Translations under genes and position numbers: made by a program | Notes under the pieces: generated by a model | Databases searched by the model: none | What the model was told of the DNA's origin: nothing | What the model saw: only the letters and a program-made list of their open reading frames with translations | Source of the DNA: a virus | Lineage: Duplodnaviria; Heunggongvirae; Uroviricota; Caudoviricetes | Direction: 5' to 3' (one strand) | DNA: 64,000 nucleotides | Virus record (IMG/VR): IMGVR_UViG_2703718819_000006 | In this document: in pieces, positions 3,532-58,387 of the stretch | Position numbering within the stretch: the first letter of the stretch is position 1 | Layout: every line of letters starts with the position of its first letter

Positions 3532-3592
3532 GTGTTTTTCTCTTATCGTTTAGTAACTACATTCTTACACAAATTAGGTAAGTATTTACCTA

Positions 3593-5278
3593 TCATTTAA
3601 CGCGTTTGAAAACGTATACGCTGACTGTGATCCCTGTGTCTTCAAACTCGTTGGTAAACGACTTCCCTCTGGCATAAACGTAATTATCCATCGTCATCCA
3701 GTCCAGTATTGGCGCAGTGCCCGGCAATACTGCTACAAGACGCCCGCCGACTTTCAGATGCCCCAGCGCAGCCAGCGTGTGCTCTCTATGACGACCAAGC
3801 GAGTACGGCGGGTTCATAACGATTTTGTCGAACTGATAACCTACGTTGTCCTCAGACCACTTTATGAAGTCGCAGCAAATCGTGTTCGTATACCCTTTTC
3901 CGCGCAGGATATCAGCGAAGAGAGGTGCGATTTCTATGCAGGTAACATCTTCCAGATCGGCGTTGATATAGGCCAGAAGATCCCCACGTCCGGCTTGAGG
4001 CTCCAGCAGCTTCTCACCAGGCTTCAATTCAGTGGCTCTGGCAACGTACTCAGCAATCAAGCGTGGGGTAGGGTAGAACTGGTGTGATTTTGTATCCGGT
4101 ATTAATCCGGTAGCCACAATCGTATTTAGCGTATGGCCGATCTCATACGGGAACTGCCAGTGCTTTTTCTCCTGCACGCCGCCAATGAAGCTCAGTGTGC
4201 GCTCAAGCTCTTCCACCTGCGACTTCTGGAGAGCTGAATCAGAGAAGTACCATACGCCTTTGTCTTTGCTTAATCGCCCGTCACGAAGCGCAGTGCGAAC
4301 CGGCACGGAGATCGTCTTCTGGATTAACCCGAACTGCTTTGGTGCCCGTGTTTTTGGCGCGGTGCGACATGGCGCGGGGATTGCAGCAGGCATACTGTAA
4401 GCCAGCACCTCATTCAACTTCCAGGCCACGTCAGGATGTATTTCAAAGTGAACGTTGCCGTTCTTGAACATCTTCACGCGCATTAGATTTCCATCGACGT
4501 TCATCCAGTCACCGGTCTGGCAGTCGTTTGCCCGATACGCAGCTGATAGCACCTCAGCAGTGCGGTTGATGGTAATAAATTCTTTGTGCGCGAAGAAATG
4601 AAGCAAGACACGCAGATCGTCGATATAGTCCTCTTTGCGATAGTTCACACTAACGCTGTCCCGCCAGAAATCAGAAATGCAGTCAGCGATTATCAGACGT
4701 TCGCTGAAACCGTTTGTCTTATTTGTCTTGTGCGCAGGACTCAGCGCCTTAAACAAGCCATACACGCGCTCAGAGAGATATTTGTGCCTGTCATTCAGCA
4801 AATTAAGCATCGTGGGTATGACCGTTTCTGCTTTGAACTCCGGTACACCAACGAACTCTTTAACCTTCATCTGGTAGCCGGTTCTGTCAGTTTTGATGAC
4901 TTCCTGTTTGCCCTCTATAAACTGCTCGCGCCACTCATCTCGACGGGAAGCTGGCATGATCAGCAAAACGTTAGTCATGTCCGTGACCTTCCTCCAGTAC
5001 TCGGCCCAAATATTCTGTTTCACCCATTCCAGATCGACTTTATCCAACCAACCTCGATTTAAACGCGAGCGATCTTCATCTGGTCGATGGTTTAGTCTCA
5101 GCAGGCGATTAATCATGTTGTGGCGTTCGTCGCCATAAACGAAGTCGTGTACCTGATACATGAAGGCGATCTCTTTCTCGCACTCGGCCACAATTTCGTG
5201 GATGACGTTCATTTCCTGCCGATAGTCGATAGCAGTGTTTGAGTTGGCATCGTCGATGATGGAAAGGGCTGTATTCAT
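3593..5278 (-). CDS. putative N6-adenine DNA methyltransferase (gamma-class core at C-terminus) with ~390 aa N-terminal domain of unknown function
   Basis: C-terminal motifs FYPTP (motif X), LEPQAGRGDLL (motif I), NPPY (motif IV) in that order; N-terminal part without recognisable motifs. Confidence 0.6.
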   Translation of the reverse strand: MNTALSIIDDANSNTAIDYRQEMNVIHEIVAECEKEIAFMYQVHDFVYGDERHNMINRLLRLNHRPDEDRSRLNRGWLDKVDLEWVKQNIWAEYWRKVTDMTNVLLIMPASRRDEWREQFIEGKQEVIKTDRTGYQMKVKEFVGVPEFKAETVIPTMLNLLNDRHKYLSERVYGLFKALSPAHKTNKTNGFSERLIIADCISDFWRDSVSVNYRKEDYIDDLRVLLHFFAHKEFITINRTAEVLSAAYRANDCQTGDWMNVDGNLMRVKMFKNGNVHFEIHPDVAWKLNEVLAYSMPAAIPAPCRTAPKTRAPKQFGLIQKTISVPVRTALRDGRLSKDKGVWYFSDSALQKSQVEELERTLSFIGGVQEKKHWQFPYEIGHTLNTIVATGLIPDTKSHQFYPTPRLIAEYVARATELKPGEKLLEPQAGRGDLLAYINADLEDVTCIEIAPLFADILRGKGYTNTICCDFIKWSEDNVGYQFDKIVMNPPYSLGRHREHTLAALGHLKVGGRLVAVLPGTAPILDWMTMDNYVYARGKSFTNEFEDTGITVSVYVFKRVK

Positions 5279-8414: not shown

Positions 8415-8559
8415 GTGGACTCCATCCAGTGTCAGAAAGAGTTGCGGCTGGCGATTGCCAGCCGCCTTTCTCGTTCCATCCTGGAACTGTGTCTTACCGA
8501 CACATTGTCATCCTGACGCCGATAAGATACATGATTTAAAATGATAGGTAAACACTTAC

Positions 8560-9153
8560 TTACTGCTTGTTGTAAACAAAACCAATATCTTTCTTGTGAG
8601 GCATATCTGCTGCGGAAAAAGCTGCGATCTTCGCGAGTCGATCACATATTTCATTTTCACGATGCCCGGCGTGACCTTTAACCCACTTCCAGCGAACATT
8701 ATGTCGACTTGCAGCCTCATCCAGACGCTTCCACAGATCAACATTCTTTACCGGTTTTTTGTCAGAAGTCACCCATCCATTGCGTTTCCACCATTTCATC
8801 CACTGTGTCATGCCGTTTTTCAGATACTGGCTATCAGAGTGCAAAATAACGTTGCATGGATATTTCAAACGCTCCAGCCCGATAAGTGCCCCCATCATCT
8901 CCATGCGGTTATTGGTGGTGCTATGAAAACCATCTGAGAACTCGCGTTCCTCACCACGATACTGGAGAACGATACCGTAACCGCCCGGGCCACCCGGATT
9001 TTTAAGGCAAGAGCCATCACTAAAGATTTTCACGGTTTTAAGCTGGGGATTGAACTCTACGACAGGCGTTGTGGGATTGGTGCGGGGGGAATTTTTGTTT
9101 TTGGCTTTTTTGCGAGTTTTTGCTTGCGATCGAGCTGGTGTCTTCGTCGTCAT
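8560..9153 (-). CDS. rnhA: ribonuclease HI
   Basis: Strong similarity to RNase HI (FSDGSC..GGYG, TNNRME, KGHAGHxENExCDxLA); start moved to ATG with AGGAG RBS. Confidence 0.85.
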
Positions 9154-10745: not shown

Positions 10746-10812
10746 CTTCTTTCTCGATAGGTAAGTGATTACCTATTTTTGCATTTGATTTTATGTATGG
10801 CAATGAAATAAA

Positions 10813-20263: not shown

Positions 20264-20336
20264 GTATCACCAAATAAAGAGGGCCACTAAATATAGTGGC
20301 TCATGTTAATAGATAAGCACTTACCTATCAATGAAA

Positions 20337-24880: not shown

Positions 24881-25134
24881 GTGTTTTTCCTTTGTGGTTA
24901 TTTTGATACAAATTTTAAGAGCAATGAGAAGGTAAACAACTATGCATAACGGTATGTTAGGAATGAAACGAGCGCATTAATATACAAAATTTATAAGTAA
25001 GTATATACCTATTTGTTGTGACGCAACTTTGCTTGTCTGTATGACTAAAAATAAGACAGGATCACTGTAGAACGCTATGAGAGCTATTTTGAGGGGGCGT
25101 AGATTCTATCTACGCCAATATACGATCTGGAGGG

Positions 25135-25874: not shown

Positions 25875-25977
25875 GGATAGATCCAAATAAGAGATCCCAA
25901 GTAAGATCAAATAGAAGATCCAAAGAGATCCCCGATCGCCTCTAGCCGTTGCGGTTACTGGTCTGAAAGGGTGTTGC

Positions 25978-26080
25978 CATCCACTATGGAGAGCAAAGAA
26001 ACCTCTGTAGAGAGCTGAATAACCGCTATGAAGAGTAAAACAACCACTCTGGAGAGCTGTATATATCCACTGTAGAGAGT
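25978..26080. repeat. iteron array A (5 direct repeats of ~16 bp, ~21-22 bp period)
   Basis: Repeats of consensus ATCCACTATAGAGAG. Confidence 0.75.
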
Positions 26081-26238
26081 AGAGCACATTGTCTTTTATG
26101 GATAACTTAATGACTTAATTCTTCATTAACATACTGATATACATAGATATATTTTAAACTCTACTCTTAGTCATGATTCTTATGTCCTTAAATATCCACA
26201 GAAGAGTAGAGTTACCTGTTCTTGAAATCCTCTGATTT

Positions 26239-26247
26239 TTATCCACA
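26239..26247. promoter_or_regulatory. DnaA box (TTATCCACA)
   Basis: Perfect 9-mer in AT-rich segment between iteron arrays. Confidence 0.5.
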
Positions 26248-26357
26248 GGCCCGATCCAGTAATTCAGATCACAAAGAGAACCAAAGAGACCCATAAAGAC
26301 CCAATAAGATCCCCGCCCACCTCAAACCGTTGTGCCATCTGCCTTCAGACATGATCG

Positions 26358-26480
26358 ATATCCACTATAGAGAGCGAATAATCCACTATAGGGAGCAAAG
26401 CAACCACTATAGAGAGGAGAAAAACCACTATAGACGGTAGGATAACCGCTGTGATGAGTGCTACTATCCACTGTAATCAG
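26358..26480. repeat. iteron array B (6 direct repeats) immediately upstream of repA
   Basis: Repeats of (A)ATCCACTATAGAGAG at ~21-22 bp spacing. Confidence 0.8.
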
Positions 26481-26521: not shown

Positions 26522-27577
26522 ATGAGCGAAAACGGCAATAAAAACATAGCGATCGTTGAAGCATTTTCAGAAACAGATAAAAAGACAGGCGAAGTTGTTA
26601 CGTTGGTTCCTAACACTAATAACACTGTTCAGCCTGTTGCTTTGATGCGTCTGGGCCTCTTCGTTCCGACGCTGAAATCGACATCCAGAGGAAGAAAGGG
26701 GCAAATGGTCTCTATGGATGCCTCTGCTGAACTCAAACAGCTGTCTCTGGCAAAAGCCGAAGGGTACGAAGACATAAGGATCTCTGGCCTTCGGCTTGAT
26801 ATGGATAACGACTTTAAAACGTGGGTGGGAATAATCCACGCGTTTGCCAAACACAAGGTCGTTGGCGATACTGTCACGTTGCCGTTCGTTGAGTTTGTAA
26901 GGCTGTGTGGCATTCCGACCGCCAGGTCATCAGCGAAGTTACGCAAACGCCTGGACAGTTCGCTAAGCCGTATTGCCACAAACACCATCTCGTTCCGTAG
27001 CAAAGGCTCTGATGAGTTTTACGTAACGCATCTTGTGCAAACGGCAAAATATAGTGTCAAGCACGATACGGTCGAACTGAAAGCAGATCCCAAGATTTTC
27101 GAACTCTACCAGTTCGACAAAAAGGTTCTTCTGCAACTCCGGGCTATAAACGAACTCTCAAGAAAAGAATCCGCTCAGGCGCTTTATACTTTTATTGAAA
27201 GTTTGCCGCCTGATCCGGCACCAATATCACTAGCCCGTTTACGCGCCAGACTTAATCTGACAAGTCGCACTATTACTCAGAATGCGACGGTAAGAAAGGC
27301 TATGGAACAGCTGCGAGAGATAGGATATCTCGATTACACGGAAGTTAAGCGCGGAAACTCGGTCTACTTCGTCATCCACTATAGGCGGCCAAAGTTACGC
27401 CAGGCACAAATATCAACAAAAATCGATAATGATGAGACGGAATATAGCCTCCCAGATGAGAATCAAGATGACATTATCGACGTTGTGCCTGACGAAAAAG
27501 AAGGCAAAATGGTCATGTTGAGTAAAGAAGAACTGGCACTTCTCGAAGAGTTGCGCAAGGCAAAGACTCGCAAATAG
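26522..27577 (+). CDS. repA: plasmid replication initiator RepA (P1 RepA family)
   Basis: [42 protein letters not shown] and [12 protein letters not shown] closely recall P1 RepA; flanked by iterons. Confidence 0.85.
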
Positions 27578-27580
27578 CCC

Positions 27581-28060
27581 AACCACTGTAGTTAGTAGTA
27601 AGGCTCACTATCCACTGTAGTGAGCCTTACTTATATCTGTAATTCGCTATCCACTATAGTGAGTATCGTTATCTGTTGATAACCACTGTAGGCAGTAGAA
27701 TGCAAATACTGAATTAAATGTTAGTGATCACTAACACTGATGAAACAAGGGCTGCGAGGTTAGTGGTCACTGGGTATCTTGGAAAATTTACTGTCTATAG
27801 TGGTTGTTGTCGCCCTCATCTTTGAGCGTATCCACTGTGGCGAGTGGATATCCACTGAAAACAGCAAAGGCTTACTCACCATAGTGGATACCCGCTGGAC
27901 ATCTCACTCCAATACTCACCATAGTGGTTGTTTGATGCGAATGAAAGGCTGTCTACTCGCTACAGTGGTTAGCAGATATGTAGGAAGGTTTTGTTACTGA
28001 CTACAGTGGATAATGAGCTGGATACGAATGCGGTGAGCAGACTACTCACCGCAGTGGTTG
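27581..28060. repeat. downstream iteron array (incA-like), repeats in both orientations
   Basis: About 11 copies of CCACTGTAG / CTATAGTGG-type repeats. Confidence 0.75.
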
Positions 28061-28109
28061 GTGCTATTAGTGTATTTTCTTCAACAGACCCCAAAGTGTT
28101 CAGGCTTTT

Positions 28110-28279
28110 GTAGTCAGTTTTCCTGTTTCTGGATCGTACATACGCCATTCACGCCGCTGGTGGACGATATACCCATCTTCACGTTCCAGACGCTCAAGAA
28201 TGCCAGGCTGCTTGAAACCCTTAGCACGCCAGTAGCCGCTTGTTTTCTCGATTTCCAGACCTGCCAGTGTTAATGCCAT
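28110..28279 (-). CDS. small hypothetical protein (55 aa), below ORF-track size cutoff
   Basis: AGGAGG RBS; ATG overlaps stop of upstream gene (TAATG). Confidence 0.35.
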
Positions 28280-28614
28280 TATCCAACCTCCTTGCAGTCA
28301 TCGAAAAGGTAGCTTTGCTGAGAAGCGTGAACGCCATAGAAGCCCTTGTATTTGTTGTATACGAAGTGGTCTTCTCCGACGCCGGTTAATTTGCCATTAC
28401 GGTTTGTGAGATATGGGGATGACAACACTCGATCGTCACGCACAACATAGAACTGGTCGCCGCTGTCTACGACCATCGCTCCATATGGTGCTTTTATGAC
28501 GTCGGTAAGAGCGCCATTCTTAACGTCGGCTACAGACATTTCACACTGATAAACAGTGGTGTCGGCCACAACGATCGAAGAAAGGAACAACAGCGCAAAT
28601 GGGATGGCCTTCAT
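28279..28614 (-). CDS. secreted protein with N-terminal signal peptide
   Basis: MKAIPFALLFLSSIVVA signal-like N-terminus. Confidence 0.5.
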   Translation of the reverse strand: MKAIPFALLFLSSIVVADTTVYQCEMSVADVKNGALTDVIKAPYGAMVVDSGDQFYVVRDDRVLSSPYLTNRNGKLTGVGEDHFVYNKYKGFYGVHASQQSYLFDDCKEVG

Positions 28615-28790
28615 GCTGCCACCTCTTTGATTACATCAAATGCTGAATTAAATACGAGCACGATAGCCAAAGCGTTTATGACTACGTCGTTCACCGGGGA
28701 AAAGACTTTACGAATGACACCAGTGAAAATGCAGTCGATGACAAAAGCTATTGACACGATGAGTAACAAGTATTCAATAAAAATCTTCAT
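28611..28790 (-). CDS. small membrane protein (58 aa), below ORF-track size cutoff
   Basis: Hydrophobic helices; stop overlaps ATG of downstream gene (ATGA). Confidence 0.35.
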   Translation of the reverse strand: MKIFIEYLLLIVSIAFVIDCIFTGVIRKVFSPVNDVVINALAIVLVFNSAFDVIKEVAA

Positions 28791-28829
28791 GATAGGTAGA
28801 TACTAACTTATATAAATTTTACTGTAAAC

Positions 28830-29105
28830 TCACTCAAAAGTGCTGATGCTTAAAATACGCTCAAGATGTGCGGCATCTTCATCACTGATTTGTTGAGTCT
28901 CTTCTACGTACCAACAGTTGCCGTTATGCCAACAAACACCATCATCATCAACCATCACTGAATCAGCGTCATGACCTGTATATTCAACGAGAATACGCTG
29001 GATCAGTGCGTCAGTTTCTTCGTCGTTAAGGCCATCGGCTTTGACCATAAAAAGCGGAAACACGTCATAGACAGTGCTGGTAACGATTCGAACTAAAACT
29101 CTCAT
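28830..29105 (-). CDS. hypothetical protein
   Basis: ORF track; conserved leader. Confidence 0.5.
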   Translation of the reverse strand: MRVLVRIVTSTVYDVFPLFMVKADGLNDEETDALIQRILVEYTGHDADSVMVDDDGVCWHNGNCWYVEETQQISDEDAAHLERILSISTFE

Positions 29106-29160
29106 GTGTTTTTCCTTTTGTGGTTAGTGTTTACTTATTTTGTTAGTTATGAATAGGCGA

Positions 29161-29586: not shown

Positions 29587-29647
29587 GTTTACTTCTCCTT
29601 ATAAATAGGAAAATAATCACCTTTGAAAAAATAAAGCAAAGATATAT

Positions 29648-32891: not shown

Positions 32892-35231
32892 TTACTCTTC
32901 TACTGACTCGGTGGGATTGTCTTTTGATCTCCGGTCGTCGATTGCCTGTAAAGCCGCAATGATTTCAGCTAGTGGCTTCTCCCGATACATCTCGACGATC
33001 TGTGATTTGGTGTATTTCTTGTCACCAATTTCTACTCGACCGCTGGCGTTCTTTGGCAGGTATCCTTCTTCCAGCATGTACTCGACGAGCGACTCGATAA
33101 CGTCGAGGCCACGAGTAGGATCGAAGTAGAATTTCCAGGTGCATTTGCCATACGGTGGTGCAACTTTGTTTTTGATGCACTCTGCGCCTACGTCCTGGCC
33201 GATCTTCTCTTTCCCATCCTTCATCACCGATGCACCGAGACGGATGCGCACAGAAGCGTAAAACTTCGGTGAATCGCCGCCTGGAGACGTAGTAGGGTCG
33301 CCAAACATTACACCGATTTTTGTGCGAACCTGATTCAAGAAGATGATGCAGGCGTTGTATTTGCGTGCCCACAAAGCCAGAGTAGGGAAGTTCGCACTCG
33401 TCGCACGAGCCAGCGCCGTATTGTCGTTCATGTTTAGCTGATCTTTGTCTTTGGCAGTGCCTTCAGCCATCTTTTCGAACTTCTCGGCTTTGGAGTTCGG
33501 AACCATAGACGCAAGTGAGTCAGCCACGATACAGATAGGTGCTGATTCAGGAATAAGCTCTTCATCACGTACCAATTTAAGAATTGTGCCGATCAACTCT
33601 ACAGAGTCTTCGAAGGTATCAGGCTGCTTGTATACCCACTGACCGTCATCCTCATCTGCATTCAAACCATTGGCTACAGCCAGGCCAACGTCAAAACTGT
33701 TTTCATGATCGAGGAATACCGCCAGACCATCTTGTTTTTGAGCGGAGATCATCGCTGCTGTTGCAAGGAATGTGTTGTGGCTGATAATCCCGTTAGACCA
33801 GAAAGAGTGTGTTTCCGGCATCGCTACGTCGAACGTTGGTGCTTCACCTTCCTCAATAGCCACGACTTCGTCGTAGAACAAGTTAGAGCCAATTACCGCT
33901 GCCAGTTGTGCAAACAGATGCTCGTTAAAACGATTCTTTCTGCCAATGAAGGAGACATAGATTTCTCGCAGTTTGTCTATTCCGACACGATCGCCGCGGC
34001 CAATAACGTGGTCTACCAGAGCGTAGTCTTCACGGGTGGTCTTGGTGAGCGACTCGTAGAGTGATTTCACTAAGCCGCTGATGTGCGGAACATAGCCTGA
34101 GTAAGTGCGGTCAAAACCAATGTCCCGTTTGGTTGCCACTGATAAACGTGCCGGAGATTCGAAACCAATCGTTGACAGAAAAAGGTCGTAATTAGAGCCA
34201 CTGAATGACAGCCGGTAATATGTATTTTCATAACCCGCGACGTGTTTTTCAGAGATAGTTGACGTAATCCCCAGATTCAGGAGCATGAGGCGAATTTGCT
34301 GTAGCAGCAGCCCACTCGCGCTCACAACCTCAATGCAGCGACCATCATTGACGTGGCATTCCAGCTCAAAGTAGCCGCGAAGGAATGCAATTTGAGCCTC
34401 GCTATTGGCGCGACGCACACTCAACGGAACCTGCTTGCCAGCAGCTTTCTCATACTCCAGACCATATTCTTTAAAAAGCAGCGAACGCACCTCTTTGCTA
34501 AACAGCACATGGTCTTCCGAGCCGTTATGTTTTCTCGTAACTGGCATCTTGTCTGATACCAGCGAAATGAGGCGGTAGTACTCATCCTTGATGAAAGGAT
34601 CTGTGTTAGAAAAATTCACTGAATTTTCAGAGGCCACGTATCCGTCAGCAATTAAATAGCCCATCAGTTTTGCGATATTGGCATCCAGGTGCTGATCGCC
34701 GAATTGATGTGTGCCAACCATTGAAGGAATCGTGTCGCCTACACTGATTTTTTCAGCATGTCGCCAGACGACATTACCTAAGTCGTCAACCACACGGATT
34801 GGGTGACGGAACGTAGCCTCGATATAACCGCCTGATGCCAGCTTAATACGCTTGAATTTGCGACGGTTGTTCCATGTCAGGTGTGAGGTCTTCTCTATCA
34901 CGCCATTTTCATTGATGAGTCCAACGTTATGCTCTACATCGCGAGTAGTGCATGTCGCTTTGTACCCTTCAATCTCAAACAACTCTTTCACTGTTACCAT
35001 TCCACGCTCCGTCAGCAGCATGGTGTCTGCGGTAACACATTTCCCCGCGCTTGGAGGACCGAATACTTCTACGATACGACCACATGGGAAACCGCCATCG
35101 TAACGACCGGAAATAGCTTTGTTTAACGGAGGAAAGCCTGTGTCAATCCAATGAGTTACTTTCTGAATTTCGTCGTTGCTACCGATTTTCTTTTTCAGAG
35201 CAAGTGCCAGTGCGGATTTTCCTTTTGCCAT
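32892..35231 (-). CDS. RecA-like recombinase interrupted by an intein with LAGLIDADG homing endonuclease domain
   Basis: Exteins give GPPSAGK|TFLATAAM Walker A and RecA-like FLDHENSFD, YKQPDTFEDSVEL; insert begins with Cys, ends SHN, contains LMGYLIADGYV. Confidence 0.8.
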   Translation of the reverse strand: MAKGKSALALALKKKIGSNDEIQKVTHWIDTGFPPLNKAISGRYDGGFPCGRIVEVFGPPSAGKCVTADTMLLTERGMVTVKELFEIEGYKATCTTRDVEHNVGLINENGVIEKTSHLTWNNRRKFKRIKLASGGYIEATFRHPIRVVDDLGNVVWRHAEKISVGDTIPSMVGTHQFGDQHLDANIAKLMGYLIADGYVASENSVNFSNTDPFIKDEYYRLISLVSDKMPVTRKHNGSEDHVLFSKEVRSLLFKEYGLEYEKAAGKQVPLSVRRANSEAQIAFLRGYFELECHVNDGRCIEVVSASGLLLQQIRLMLLNLGITSTISEKHVAGYENTYYRLSFSGSNYDLFLSTIGFESPARLSVATKRDIGFDRTYSGYVPHISGLVKSLYESLTKTTREDYALVDHVIGRGDRVGIDKLREIYVSFIGRKNRFNEHLFAQLAAVIGSNLFYDEVVAIEEGEAPTFDVAMPETHSFWSNGIISHNTFLATAAMISAQKQDGLAVFLDHENSFDVGLAVANGLNADEDDGQWVYKQPDTFEDSVELIGTILKLVRDEELIPESAPICIVADSLASMVPNSKAEKFEKMAEGTAKDKDQLNMNDNTALARATSANFPTLALWARKYNACIIFLNQVRTKIGVMFGDPTTSPGGDSPKFYASVRIRLGASVMKDGKEKIGQDVGAECIKNKVAPPYGKCTWKFYFDPTRGLDVIESLVEYMLEEGYLPKNASGRVEIGDKKYTKSQIVEMYREKPLAEIIAALQAIDDRRSKDNPTESVEE
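33774..35039 (-). other. intein (~422 aa) within RecA-like gene
   Basis: Cys1 after GPPSAGK, LAGLIDADG motif, C-terminal HN followed by Thr+1. Confidence 0.75.
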
Positions 35232-53977: not shown

Positions 53978-54031
53978 AAATAATCTTGTACTTACCTATC
54001 GTTATTTGCGTAAAAACGACGCGCGGAGAGA

Positions 54032-58271: not shown

Positions 58272-58387
58272 GTGGCTCACCTGGTAGGTAGTTACTTACT
58301 TATCGCAATGAGCGGATGATAGCGACTGGTGGCAGTTTTTGGAAGTGGAAACGGAAGGGAGTTGTTCTGGTGGTGTCTTTTAAAAGA

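Follow-up and report, generated by a model that had tools for sequence, protein, structure and literature searches.

The 64,000-nucleotide (nt) stretch of DNA analysed here (the window) comes from the IMG/VR virus record IMGVR_UViG_2703718819_000006, assigned to the Caudoviricetes, and contains a cassette of three consecutive small open reading frames (ORFs) on the minus strand, named g1 (28611-28790), g2 (28279-28614) and g3 (28100-28279). The region shares 99.1% identity with the phage-plasmid Cyrano (pLF82 of Escherichia coli LF82) and 76% with Salmonella phage SSU5, and at high stringency it matches 423 PLSDB plasmids, including Yersinia pestis pMT and Salmonella Typhi pHCM2. The carrier of the cassette is a phage-plasmid of the SSU5/pHCM2/pMT1 type. 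Elements of this type, among them Y. pestis pMT1 and S. Typhi pHCM2, are often found in clinical E. coli, Klebsiella, Enterobacter and Salmonella, and most of their accessory genes are without known function. The trio has the look of an ordinary phage accessory operon; it is uncharacterised, and its genes already carry hypothetical-protein annotations.

Gene order, translational coupling and conservation

The first gene, g1, encodes a protein of 59 amino acids (aa) with two predicted membrane helices (PHROG 2535), g2 encodes the 111-aa precursor of a predicted exported protein (PHROG 2077), and g3 is a 59-aa truncated allele of a 70-aa basic protein of the Cra family (PHROG 804). The stop codon of g1 overlaps the start codon of g2 in an ATGA (28611-28614), and the stop of g2 overlaps the start of g3 in a TAATG (28277-28281). 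The second gene has its own GAGGTG site at 28620-28625, and the ribosome site of g3 is AAGGAGGT, with AAGGAGGTT at 28285-28293, 5 nt ahead of the g3 ATG. Both overlaps, the strong AGGAGG-type site of the third gene and the location next to the incA-like iterons, the last RepA-type copy of which ends at 28060, had been reported in a preliminary description of the window and were found again. The same applies to its membrane, secreted and cytoplasmic layout of the products; by hydropathy, g1 has two hydrophobic segments and g2 a single one at the N terminus. Regarding the sizes, its 111 aa for the second protein was right, and its 58 and 55 aa had to be corrected to 59 aa for both g1 and g3. What it overlooked is that the third gene is a truncated homologue of P1 Cra, judged by sequence similarity, that the trio has a conserved promoter-like element of its own, and that hundreds of records with a hypothetical-protein annotation and published expression data on a 99%-identical element already exist.

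The promoter-like or operator-like element lies directly ahead of g1 (28791-28828, minus strand) and was detected by consensus scan as TTTACA (28828-28823), 17 nt, TAGTAT (28805-28800) and 9 nt before the g1 ATG. The 40 nt ahead of this ATG are conserved in all 9 lineages compared below, even where the sequence further upstream is unrelated; these include Klebsiella, where the upstream gene is absent. The strict promoter pattern was present in 68 of the 80 IMG/VR loci. The putative transcription start site of g1 was placed from this element and would lie 0-3 nt ahead of the ATG, and the cassette mRNA is probably nearly leaderless because g1 has no Shine-Dalgarno sequence. The two lineages that have diverged furthest keep this element and have behind it an additional leader of 13-17 nt, which contains a ribosome site.

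Moreover, the promoter-like element overlaps an 18-nt dyad-like motif, AAGTTAGTATCTACCTAT (28809-28792), of which the window has five copies when up to 3 mismatches are allowed, versus 0.04 expected. A looser form of the motif (about TAGGTAAGTAnTTACCTA) was found at ~17 window loci, with 34 loose matches versus a shuffle mean of 7. The loci are intergenic and mostly lie just upstream of minus-strand genes, including the neighbouring gene g0 and a DUF7238 gene. The motif looks like a dispersed operator or promoter element of a regulator encoded by the phage-plasmid itself; the repressor candidates in Cyrano are CYRAN_45, CYRAN_98 and CYRAN_114. Two other candidates were discarded: no LexA box was seen by eye in the promoter, and PhoP-like half-sites, also noticed by eye, are not conserved across lineages.

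For the analysis of selection, the trio was extracted from nine diverged lineages (E. coli, SSU5, Y. pestis, Buttiauxella, Enterobacter, a second E. coli type, Salmonella Newport, Cronobacter and Klebsiella). The diversity was taken from PLSDB and IMG/VR because the GTDB species genomes yielded 4 loci only. Every frame is intact in the nine lineages and the overlaps are conserved. The Nei-Gojobori medians of the ratio of nonsynonymous to synonymous substitution rates (dN/dS) were 0.24 for g1, 0.13 for g2 and 0.06 for g3, with synonymous sites at or near saturation. The three genes are under purifying selection; neither a lack of conservation nor a dN/dS near 1 was seen in any of them (range 0.06-0.24). 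Their small size, together with the absence of g1 from some PLSDB gene tables (which are incomplete), could suggest that these ORFs are non-functional genes. Nevertheless, this reading has next to no probability given the strong purifying selection and the frames, overlaps and ribosome sites conserved across lineages with saturated synonymous sites, and it is refuted by the dN/dS analysis.

A more permissive search found the cassette in 787 PLSDB plasmids. Among the IMG/VR contigs, all three ORFs are full length in 78 of 80: the exact 59/111/70-aa layout with overlaps of 4 nt and 1 nt is present in 62, and 16 more are intact variants, the remaining contigs having one shortened g1 (54 aa) and one incomplete g3 match. 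The trio stays by the replication region despite a different initiator, of the RepB family in Salmonella Newport and Klebsiella and of another cluster in Cronobacter, and it is retained in Klebsiella, where g0 is absent. The order of small membrane protein, g2 homologue and 70-aa Cra homologue beside a Rep3 gene is also found in two deeply diverged lineages, a Serratia element (L023) and a metagenomic contig (L027), the g2 homologue of the latter reaching only E 1e-13 against the profile. The trio is one module and is among the most conserved non-structural units of SSU5-type phage-plasmids.

Some individual copies deserve mention. In S. Typhi pHCM2 (L016, 1503-2011), an in-frame deletion joins the first 36 codons of g1 to g2 from codon 46 onward, the fusion falling across a shared G-A-M-V stretch, and the Cra homologue also has a 3-codon deletion. 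This plasmid is a natural knock-out of the module. In Y. pestis pMT (L013, 429-887), the transposase gene of IS1541A (IS200/IS605-type) is located in the iteron region that separates repA from the Cra homologue, and the cassette genes are intact despite it. The E. coli chromosome CP043541.1, a 5.57-Mb record, carries a g0-g1-g2-g3-repA fragment (L021, 5195546-5203758) flanked by purH/purD and an oapA-like gene, which could be an integrated piece of a phage-plasmid or a misassembly.

Predicted products of the three genes

The g1 protein is very hydrophobic (grand average of hydropathy 1.55), and its two hydrophobic segments, identified by hydropathy, are separated by an invariant I-R-K loop.

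The g2 protein presents a single hydrophobic segment by hydropathy, located at its N terminus. The signal peptide MKAIPFALLFLSSIVVA (28564-28614, minus strand), with predicted cleavage before DTT, was assigned by rule (hydropathy and the -3/-1 positions) and not by a dedicated predictor. Relative to the predicted cleavage site, all 17 of the family members have a small residue at -3 and Ala at -1, and in each of them an invariant Cys follows 6-8 residues past this site. The protein is predicted to be exported by a Sec-type route, and the predicted mature form has 94 aa, 10459 Da and an isoelectric point (pI) of 4.88. The alignment of the 17 members showed C24, C107, F55, S66 and P67 to be invariant. 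The best of five AlphaFold2 models (predicted local distance difference test, pLDDT, 83.5) is all-beta with ten short strands, with Cys24 and Cys107 in the first and last of them. The model suggests that g2 folds as a small beta-barrel with a disulfide between the first and last strands; by strand alternation, the conserved DSG(D/E)Q, SSP and G-x-G-E-D loops would be at the same end of the barrel. Foldseek gave no significant match of this model in the PDB.

The g2 family is very small: 27 proteins were recovered when its profile was searched against 1.84 billion representatives, ~10 of which are diverged full-length relatives with 24-32% identity, all of ~112-118 aa and with a signal peptide. 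A relative was also found in Pantoea phage PdC23 (36% identity, E 1e-6, tblastn to the Klebsiella copies), where it heads an operon divergent from a cro-like gene and is linked by stop/start overlaps to ORFs for a 76-aa soluble and a 46-aa membrane protein. By eye, these two partners were suspected to be a diverged Cra and g1, an identification that hhalign did not support (probabilities of 0.8% and 0.5%). The PdC23 arrangement is similar by analogy only, and its partners are not claimed as homologues of g3 and g1. A further relative stands alone after a primase gene (L026). In an integrative element (L029/L030; GCA_041954745.1, 2152-4211), a distant relative of g2 is encoded two genes downstream of a protein with the domain of Tlde1, a family of effectors that target the cell wall, and other small membrane and secreted ORFs surround it. 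This locus could represent an immunity-island context.

With respect to g3, the protein matches PHROG 804 with an E of 1.1e-26 over profile positions 3-61 of 72. According to the alignment with Cyrano and SSU5, a single base at 28102 (minus strand) changes GGA to TGA at codon 60 and shortens the 70-aa protein to 59 aa. Complete g3 copies among the 80 IMG/VR loci have 70 aa in 79 of 79. The exact 61-mer around base 28102 was found in 0 of 183 plasmids and 0 of 205 complete E. coli genomes, and the stop allele appeared neither in the fetched loci nor in IMG/VR. The stop may have arisen by recent mutation, or it may be a sequencing error of the source. The lost codons encode a predicted C-terminal helix (residues 62-69), and the last 10 codons and stop of the ancestral gene persist downstream (28067-28099, minus strand), now untranslated and identical to Cyrano.

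The full-length g3 protein shares 42-44% identity over 62 residues with the Cra proteins of P1 and P7 (tblastn E 1e-4 to 4e-4 in 2.3 Gb), with 42% and E 4e-4 for P1, and the pairwise BLASTP comparison with P1 Cra gave an E of 5e-12. On this similarity, g3 is a homologue of P1 Cra (cre-associated protein). P1 Cra and the g3 family are both basic and of ~70-73 aa, a size that the 59-aa protein of the window does not reach. The genomic position also differs: in P1, cra is a single gene flanked by lox and cre and contains the cre promoters, whereas g3 is the last gene of a three-gene operon that abuts incA/repA, with no recombinase gene adjacent, and not upstream of cre and beside lox, the position from which Cra takes its name. 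One database source names g3 a 'hypothetical regulator', and no functional study of Cra or of the cassette genes was found in the literature. In addition, BLASTP revealed a weak internal repeat, residues 1-18 of the Cyrano Cra homologue aligning with residues 33-50 of P1 Cra, and the pattern L-x-I-E-K-x-x-G-x-W-R is present twice in this comparison. The repeat suggests that Cra may be a duplicated beta-hairpin unit.

Expression in Cyrano and possible function

Published RNA-seq of strain LF82 includes the Cyrano copy of the cassette, which is 99% identical (PMC9928086 S1 Table; GSE154648 re-analysed). Values are log2 fragments per kilobase per million (fpkm), with a detection floor of 2.32 in that table. 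After overnight growth in lysogeny broth (LB), CYRAN_60 (g1), CYRAN_61 (g2) and CYRAN_62 (g3) had values of 2.3, 2.5 and 3.7, respectively. In Dulbecco's modified Eagle medium (DMEM) the corresponding values were 4.3, 4.7 and 5.4 at 1 h and 3.3, 3.1 and 6.3 at 6 h, and in THP1 macrophages they reached 7.0, 6.2 and 7.2 at 1 h and 8.6, 8.4 and 8.9 at 6 h (PMC9928086). The upstream neighbours CYRAN_58/59 were at or below 5.7, and RepA moved only from ~7 to 8.3 (PMC9928086). Computed from the table, CYRAN_60/61 show the largest rise in macrophages versus DMEM at 6 h among the 123 Cyrano genes (~+5.3 log2), and the trio is the plasmid's most strongly macrophage-induced unit in this comparison, in the single dataset available. 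Since the trio rises while CYRAN_58/59 and RepA barely change, it is transcribed as its own, conditionally expressed unit, off in LB and strongly on inside macrophages. It should be noted that the authors of PMC9928086 did not list CYRAN_60-62 as morons because their screen used LB only.

The baseline of CYRAN_62 was above that of CYRAN_60/61 (6.1-6.4 versus ~3.3 log2 fpkm in DMEM at 6 h; PMC9928086). This difference hints at an extra internal promoter or a different mRNA stability and is reminiscent of P1 cra, which has the cre promoters inside.

The explanation we favour, tentatively and as a possibility rather than a probability, is that the cassette is a conditionally expressed envelope-protection or exclusion module and not an addiction module. 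In this scenario, the operon of SSU5/pHCM2/pMT1-type phage-plasmids would be a self-contained unit switched on only under certain conditions. The g2 barrel would act in the periplasm, binding and neutralising a protein that comes from outside to attack the cell wall or envelope; candidates are lysozyme-type enzymes from the animal host, a superinfecting phage or a competitor. A wall-degrading enzyme would most plausibly be the target. The g1 protein would be the inner-membrane partner of g2, and the role of Cra could be regulatory. PliC, ACP and T4 Spackle (Sp) neutralise attacking enzymes in the manner proposed here for g2. There is also a likeness to the T4 Imm/Sp pair, which combines a small two-helix inner-membrane protein with a periplasm-facing protein and, like the cassette, is not constitutively expressed; T4 Sp inhibits the incoming phage lysozyme. 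However, no homology links the two systems, Sp is helical and membrane-anchored, and imm and sp are not adjacent in T4.

In favour of the explanation are the purifying selection and wide distribution of the genes, the persistence of the trio as a module, its conserved upstream element and macrophage induction, the predicted export signal and two invariant Cys of the g2 family, and the likeness of g2 to PliC in physical parameters, with ACP as a precedent. If g2 does block a wall-degrading enzyme, it would define a novel family of inhibitors and act as a fitness or virulence factor encoded by the plasmid; another possibility is that the cassette would be a new exclusion device shaping which phages infect the carriers. 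It would also provide the first functional context for the P1 gene Cra. Otherwise, the cassette simply joins the many conserved phage operons that have no known function.

Several results weigh against the envelope-protection explanation. Regarding the fold, only one of the five AlphaFold2 models of g2 was confident, the other four having pLDDT values of 53-60. Regarding the family, some members of the g2 cluster are named 'Lysozyme inhibitor' or 'C-type lysozyme inhibitor' in UniRef, names that count in favour of the explanation and look automatic; membership in MliC/PliC (COG3895, PF09864) was checked on account of these names and of fold matches. Like those proteins, g2 carries an export signal, as judged by rule, but the assignment fails at the sequence level. 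No Pfam family, MliC included, matched g2 or any of the 17 family members at E up to 10, the family-profile search of the PDB returned no MliC, PliC or ACP chain, and hhalign of the g2 family with an MliC/PliC alignment built from PDB sequences gave a probability of 0.17%. The SxSGAxY and YxxxTKG motifs, which are the inhibitory motifs of MliC (PMC5507604), are missing from the family alignment. More generally, sequence and profile comparisons showed no similarity of the cassette to any known inhibitor or exclusion protein, and PADLOC gave no match. The explanation leaves the roles of g1 and g3 unexplained, the macrophage induction, seen in one dataset, may be a partial derepression of the prophage or a general stress response, and the damaged copies in pHCM2 and the window indicate that the module is dispensable for plasmid carriage.

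The comparison with known inhibitors is nevertheless informative. The MliC/PliC proteins are periplasmic or membrane-bound inhibitors of c-type lysozyme, with an eight-stranded beta-barrel that a disulfide stabilises. PliC is a periplasmic protein of 90 aa, 9981 Da and pI 4.76, with two Cys and a disulfide-containing barrel (PMC2267010), physical parameters close to those predicted for mature g2. The two differ in that g2 is borne by a phage-plasmid and is co-operonic with a membrane protein and Cra, and they share no profile similarity. ACP inhibits lysozyme with an MliC-like fold and without the MliC motifs (PMC5507604); this Neisseria protein is surface-exposed on the outer membrane and has no detectable sequence similarity to g2. 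It may be that g2 founds a new, sequence-unrelated family of periplasmic lysozyme inhibitors, beside Ivy, MliC/PliC, PliI, PliG and ACP, although we consider this specific proposal unlikely. If it were true, the inhibitor would be carried by SSU5-type phage-plasmids, among them Y. pestis pMT1, relatives of S. Typhi pHCM2 and pLF82/Cyrano of adherent-invasive E. coli, its expression in macrophages would be turned on jointly with that of Cra and of a small membrane partner, and widespread 'cryptic' plasmids would contribute to the evasion of innate immunity. Another candidate identity for g2, the effector Cap15 of cyclic-oligonucleotide-based antiphage signalling systems (CBASS), was rejected, with 2% identity, no cyclase gene nearby and a negative PADLOC result. 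The nucleotide-binding barrel of Cap15 is cytoplasmic and fused to membrane helices, in contrast to the predicted cleavable signal peptide and the conserved cysteine pair of g2.

Other explanations start from the architecture of the operon. The preliminary description had likened it to small toxin/immunity or superinfection-exclusion modules, adding that no sequence motif identifies the function. The latter still holds: Pfam, NCBIfam and PADLOC scans of g1, g2, g3 and three neighbours gave nothing relevant, and PHROGs returned only families of unknown function. Of the two alternatives, superinfection exclusion is viable and close to the explanation favoured here, on the basis of architecture, predicted fold, gene position and expression pattern and not of homology or phenotype. 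In its pure form, without enzyme inhibition, g1 and g2 would prevent the injection of DNA or hide a receptor or channel, in the way known for T4 Imm, Cor/Llp and P22 SieA, and Cra would be a passenger or a regulator. The pairing of a predicted inner-membrane protein with a predicted periplasmic one fits this account, as does the dyad motif shared with the promoters of many other genes of the phage-plasmid. The PdC23 homologue also heads an operon divergent from a cro-like gene, a classical site for exclusion genes such as sieB of lambda and P22 and rexAB. On the other hand, PHROGs at E up to 0.1 gave unknown-function families only for the three genes, PADLOC found nothing, and silence in LB-grown lysogens would be odd for a prophage exclusion gene; this account has a minor but real chance of being correct. 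The toxin/immunity alternative was not supported. An addiction module of the toxin-antitoxin or toxin/immunity kind, with g1 as a toxin neutralised by a partner, would agree with small overlapping genes beside a replicon and with the size and composition of g1, which resembles small hydrophobic toxins. It is very improbable, given that no toxin, antitoxin, immunity or defence domain was found by Pfam, NCBIfam or PADLOC, that CYRAN_60/61 are at the detection floor in LB, where the true toxin-antitoxin pairs of Cyrano are high, and that the g1-g2 fusion of pHCM2 and the truncated g3 of the window persist, so loss of a partner is tolerated.

The remaining explanations place the cassette in the physiology of the phage-plasmid itself. 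In a plasmid role centred on Cra, g3 or transcription into incA would modulate replication, copy number or dimer resolution, with g1 and g2 as accessories. This is consistent with the ancestral end of g3 lying 7 nt from the last iteron, with an operon that converges on repA with no predicted terminator, with P1 cra standing beside lox/cre, another plasmid-maintenance locus, with g3 being the most constrained gene of the three (dN/dS 0.06) and with its regulator name in one source; overall we regard it as rather improbable. The cassette could also control the phage's own lysis, g2 restraining the endolysin or tail muramidase, or g1 modulating the holin, to time lysis after induction. The predicted periplasmic location and inhibitor-like fold class of g2 and expression only under prophage stress point in this direction, but the holin, endolysin and Rz genes (CYRAN_22-25) are far from CYRAN_60-62, and at 1 h after infection the induction of the cassette precedes and exceeds that of the lysis genes, which makes lysis control quite improbable. 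As for a cassette protein being the holin, this was rejected because the annotated holin, endolysin and Rz genes of the element are elsewhere.

Replicon context and neighbouring genes

To the left of the cassette, the window contains a P1-like replicon with repA at 26522-27577 and iterons flanking it on both sides (25970-26480 and 27580-28060). The cassette adjoins the incA-like iteron field downstream of repA (27580-28060, no strand assigned), its transcription runs towards these iterons and converges on repA, and no intrinsic terminator was predicted between the two. The downstream iterons form two blocks of opposite orientation, 27580-27700 with ~4 copies of the ACCACTGTAG type and 27788-28060 with 6 reverse-complement copies at a spacing of ~41 bp, the last copy being 7 nt from the ancestral g3 stop codon.

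On the other side lies g0 (28830-29105, minus strand), which encodes an acidic protein of 91 aa (PHROG 2209) and forms a unit distinct from the neighbouring cassette: it carries its own copy of the dyad motif at 29121-29138, it is missing from the Klebsiella relatives, and it is not co-induced with the trio. Examples of dyad loci across the window are 3576-3593, 8544-8561, 10757-10776, 20309-20328 and 24995-25012, followed by 28792-28809, 29121-29138, 29605-29622, 53982-53999 and 58284-58301.

Finally, a 779-aa RecA-like gene is located at 32892-35231 on the minus strand of the window, and a gene of the same size at the equivalent position in a relative (L019) contains intein-splicing and LAGLIDADG endonuclease domains.

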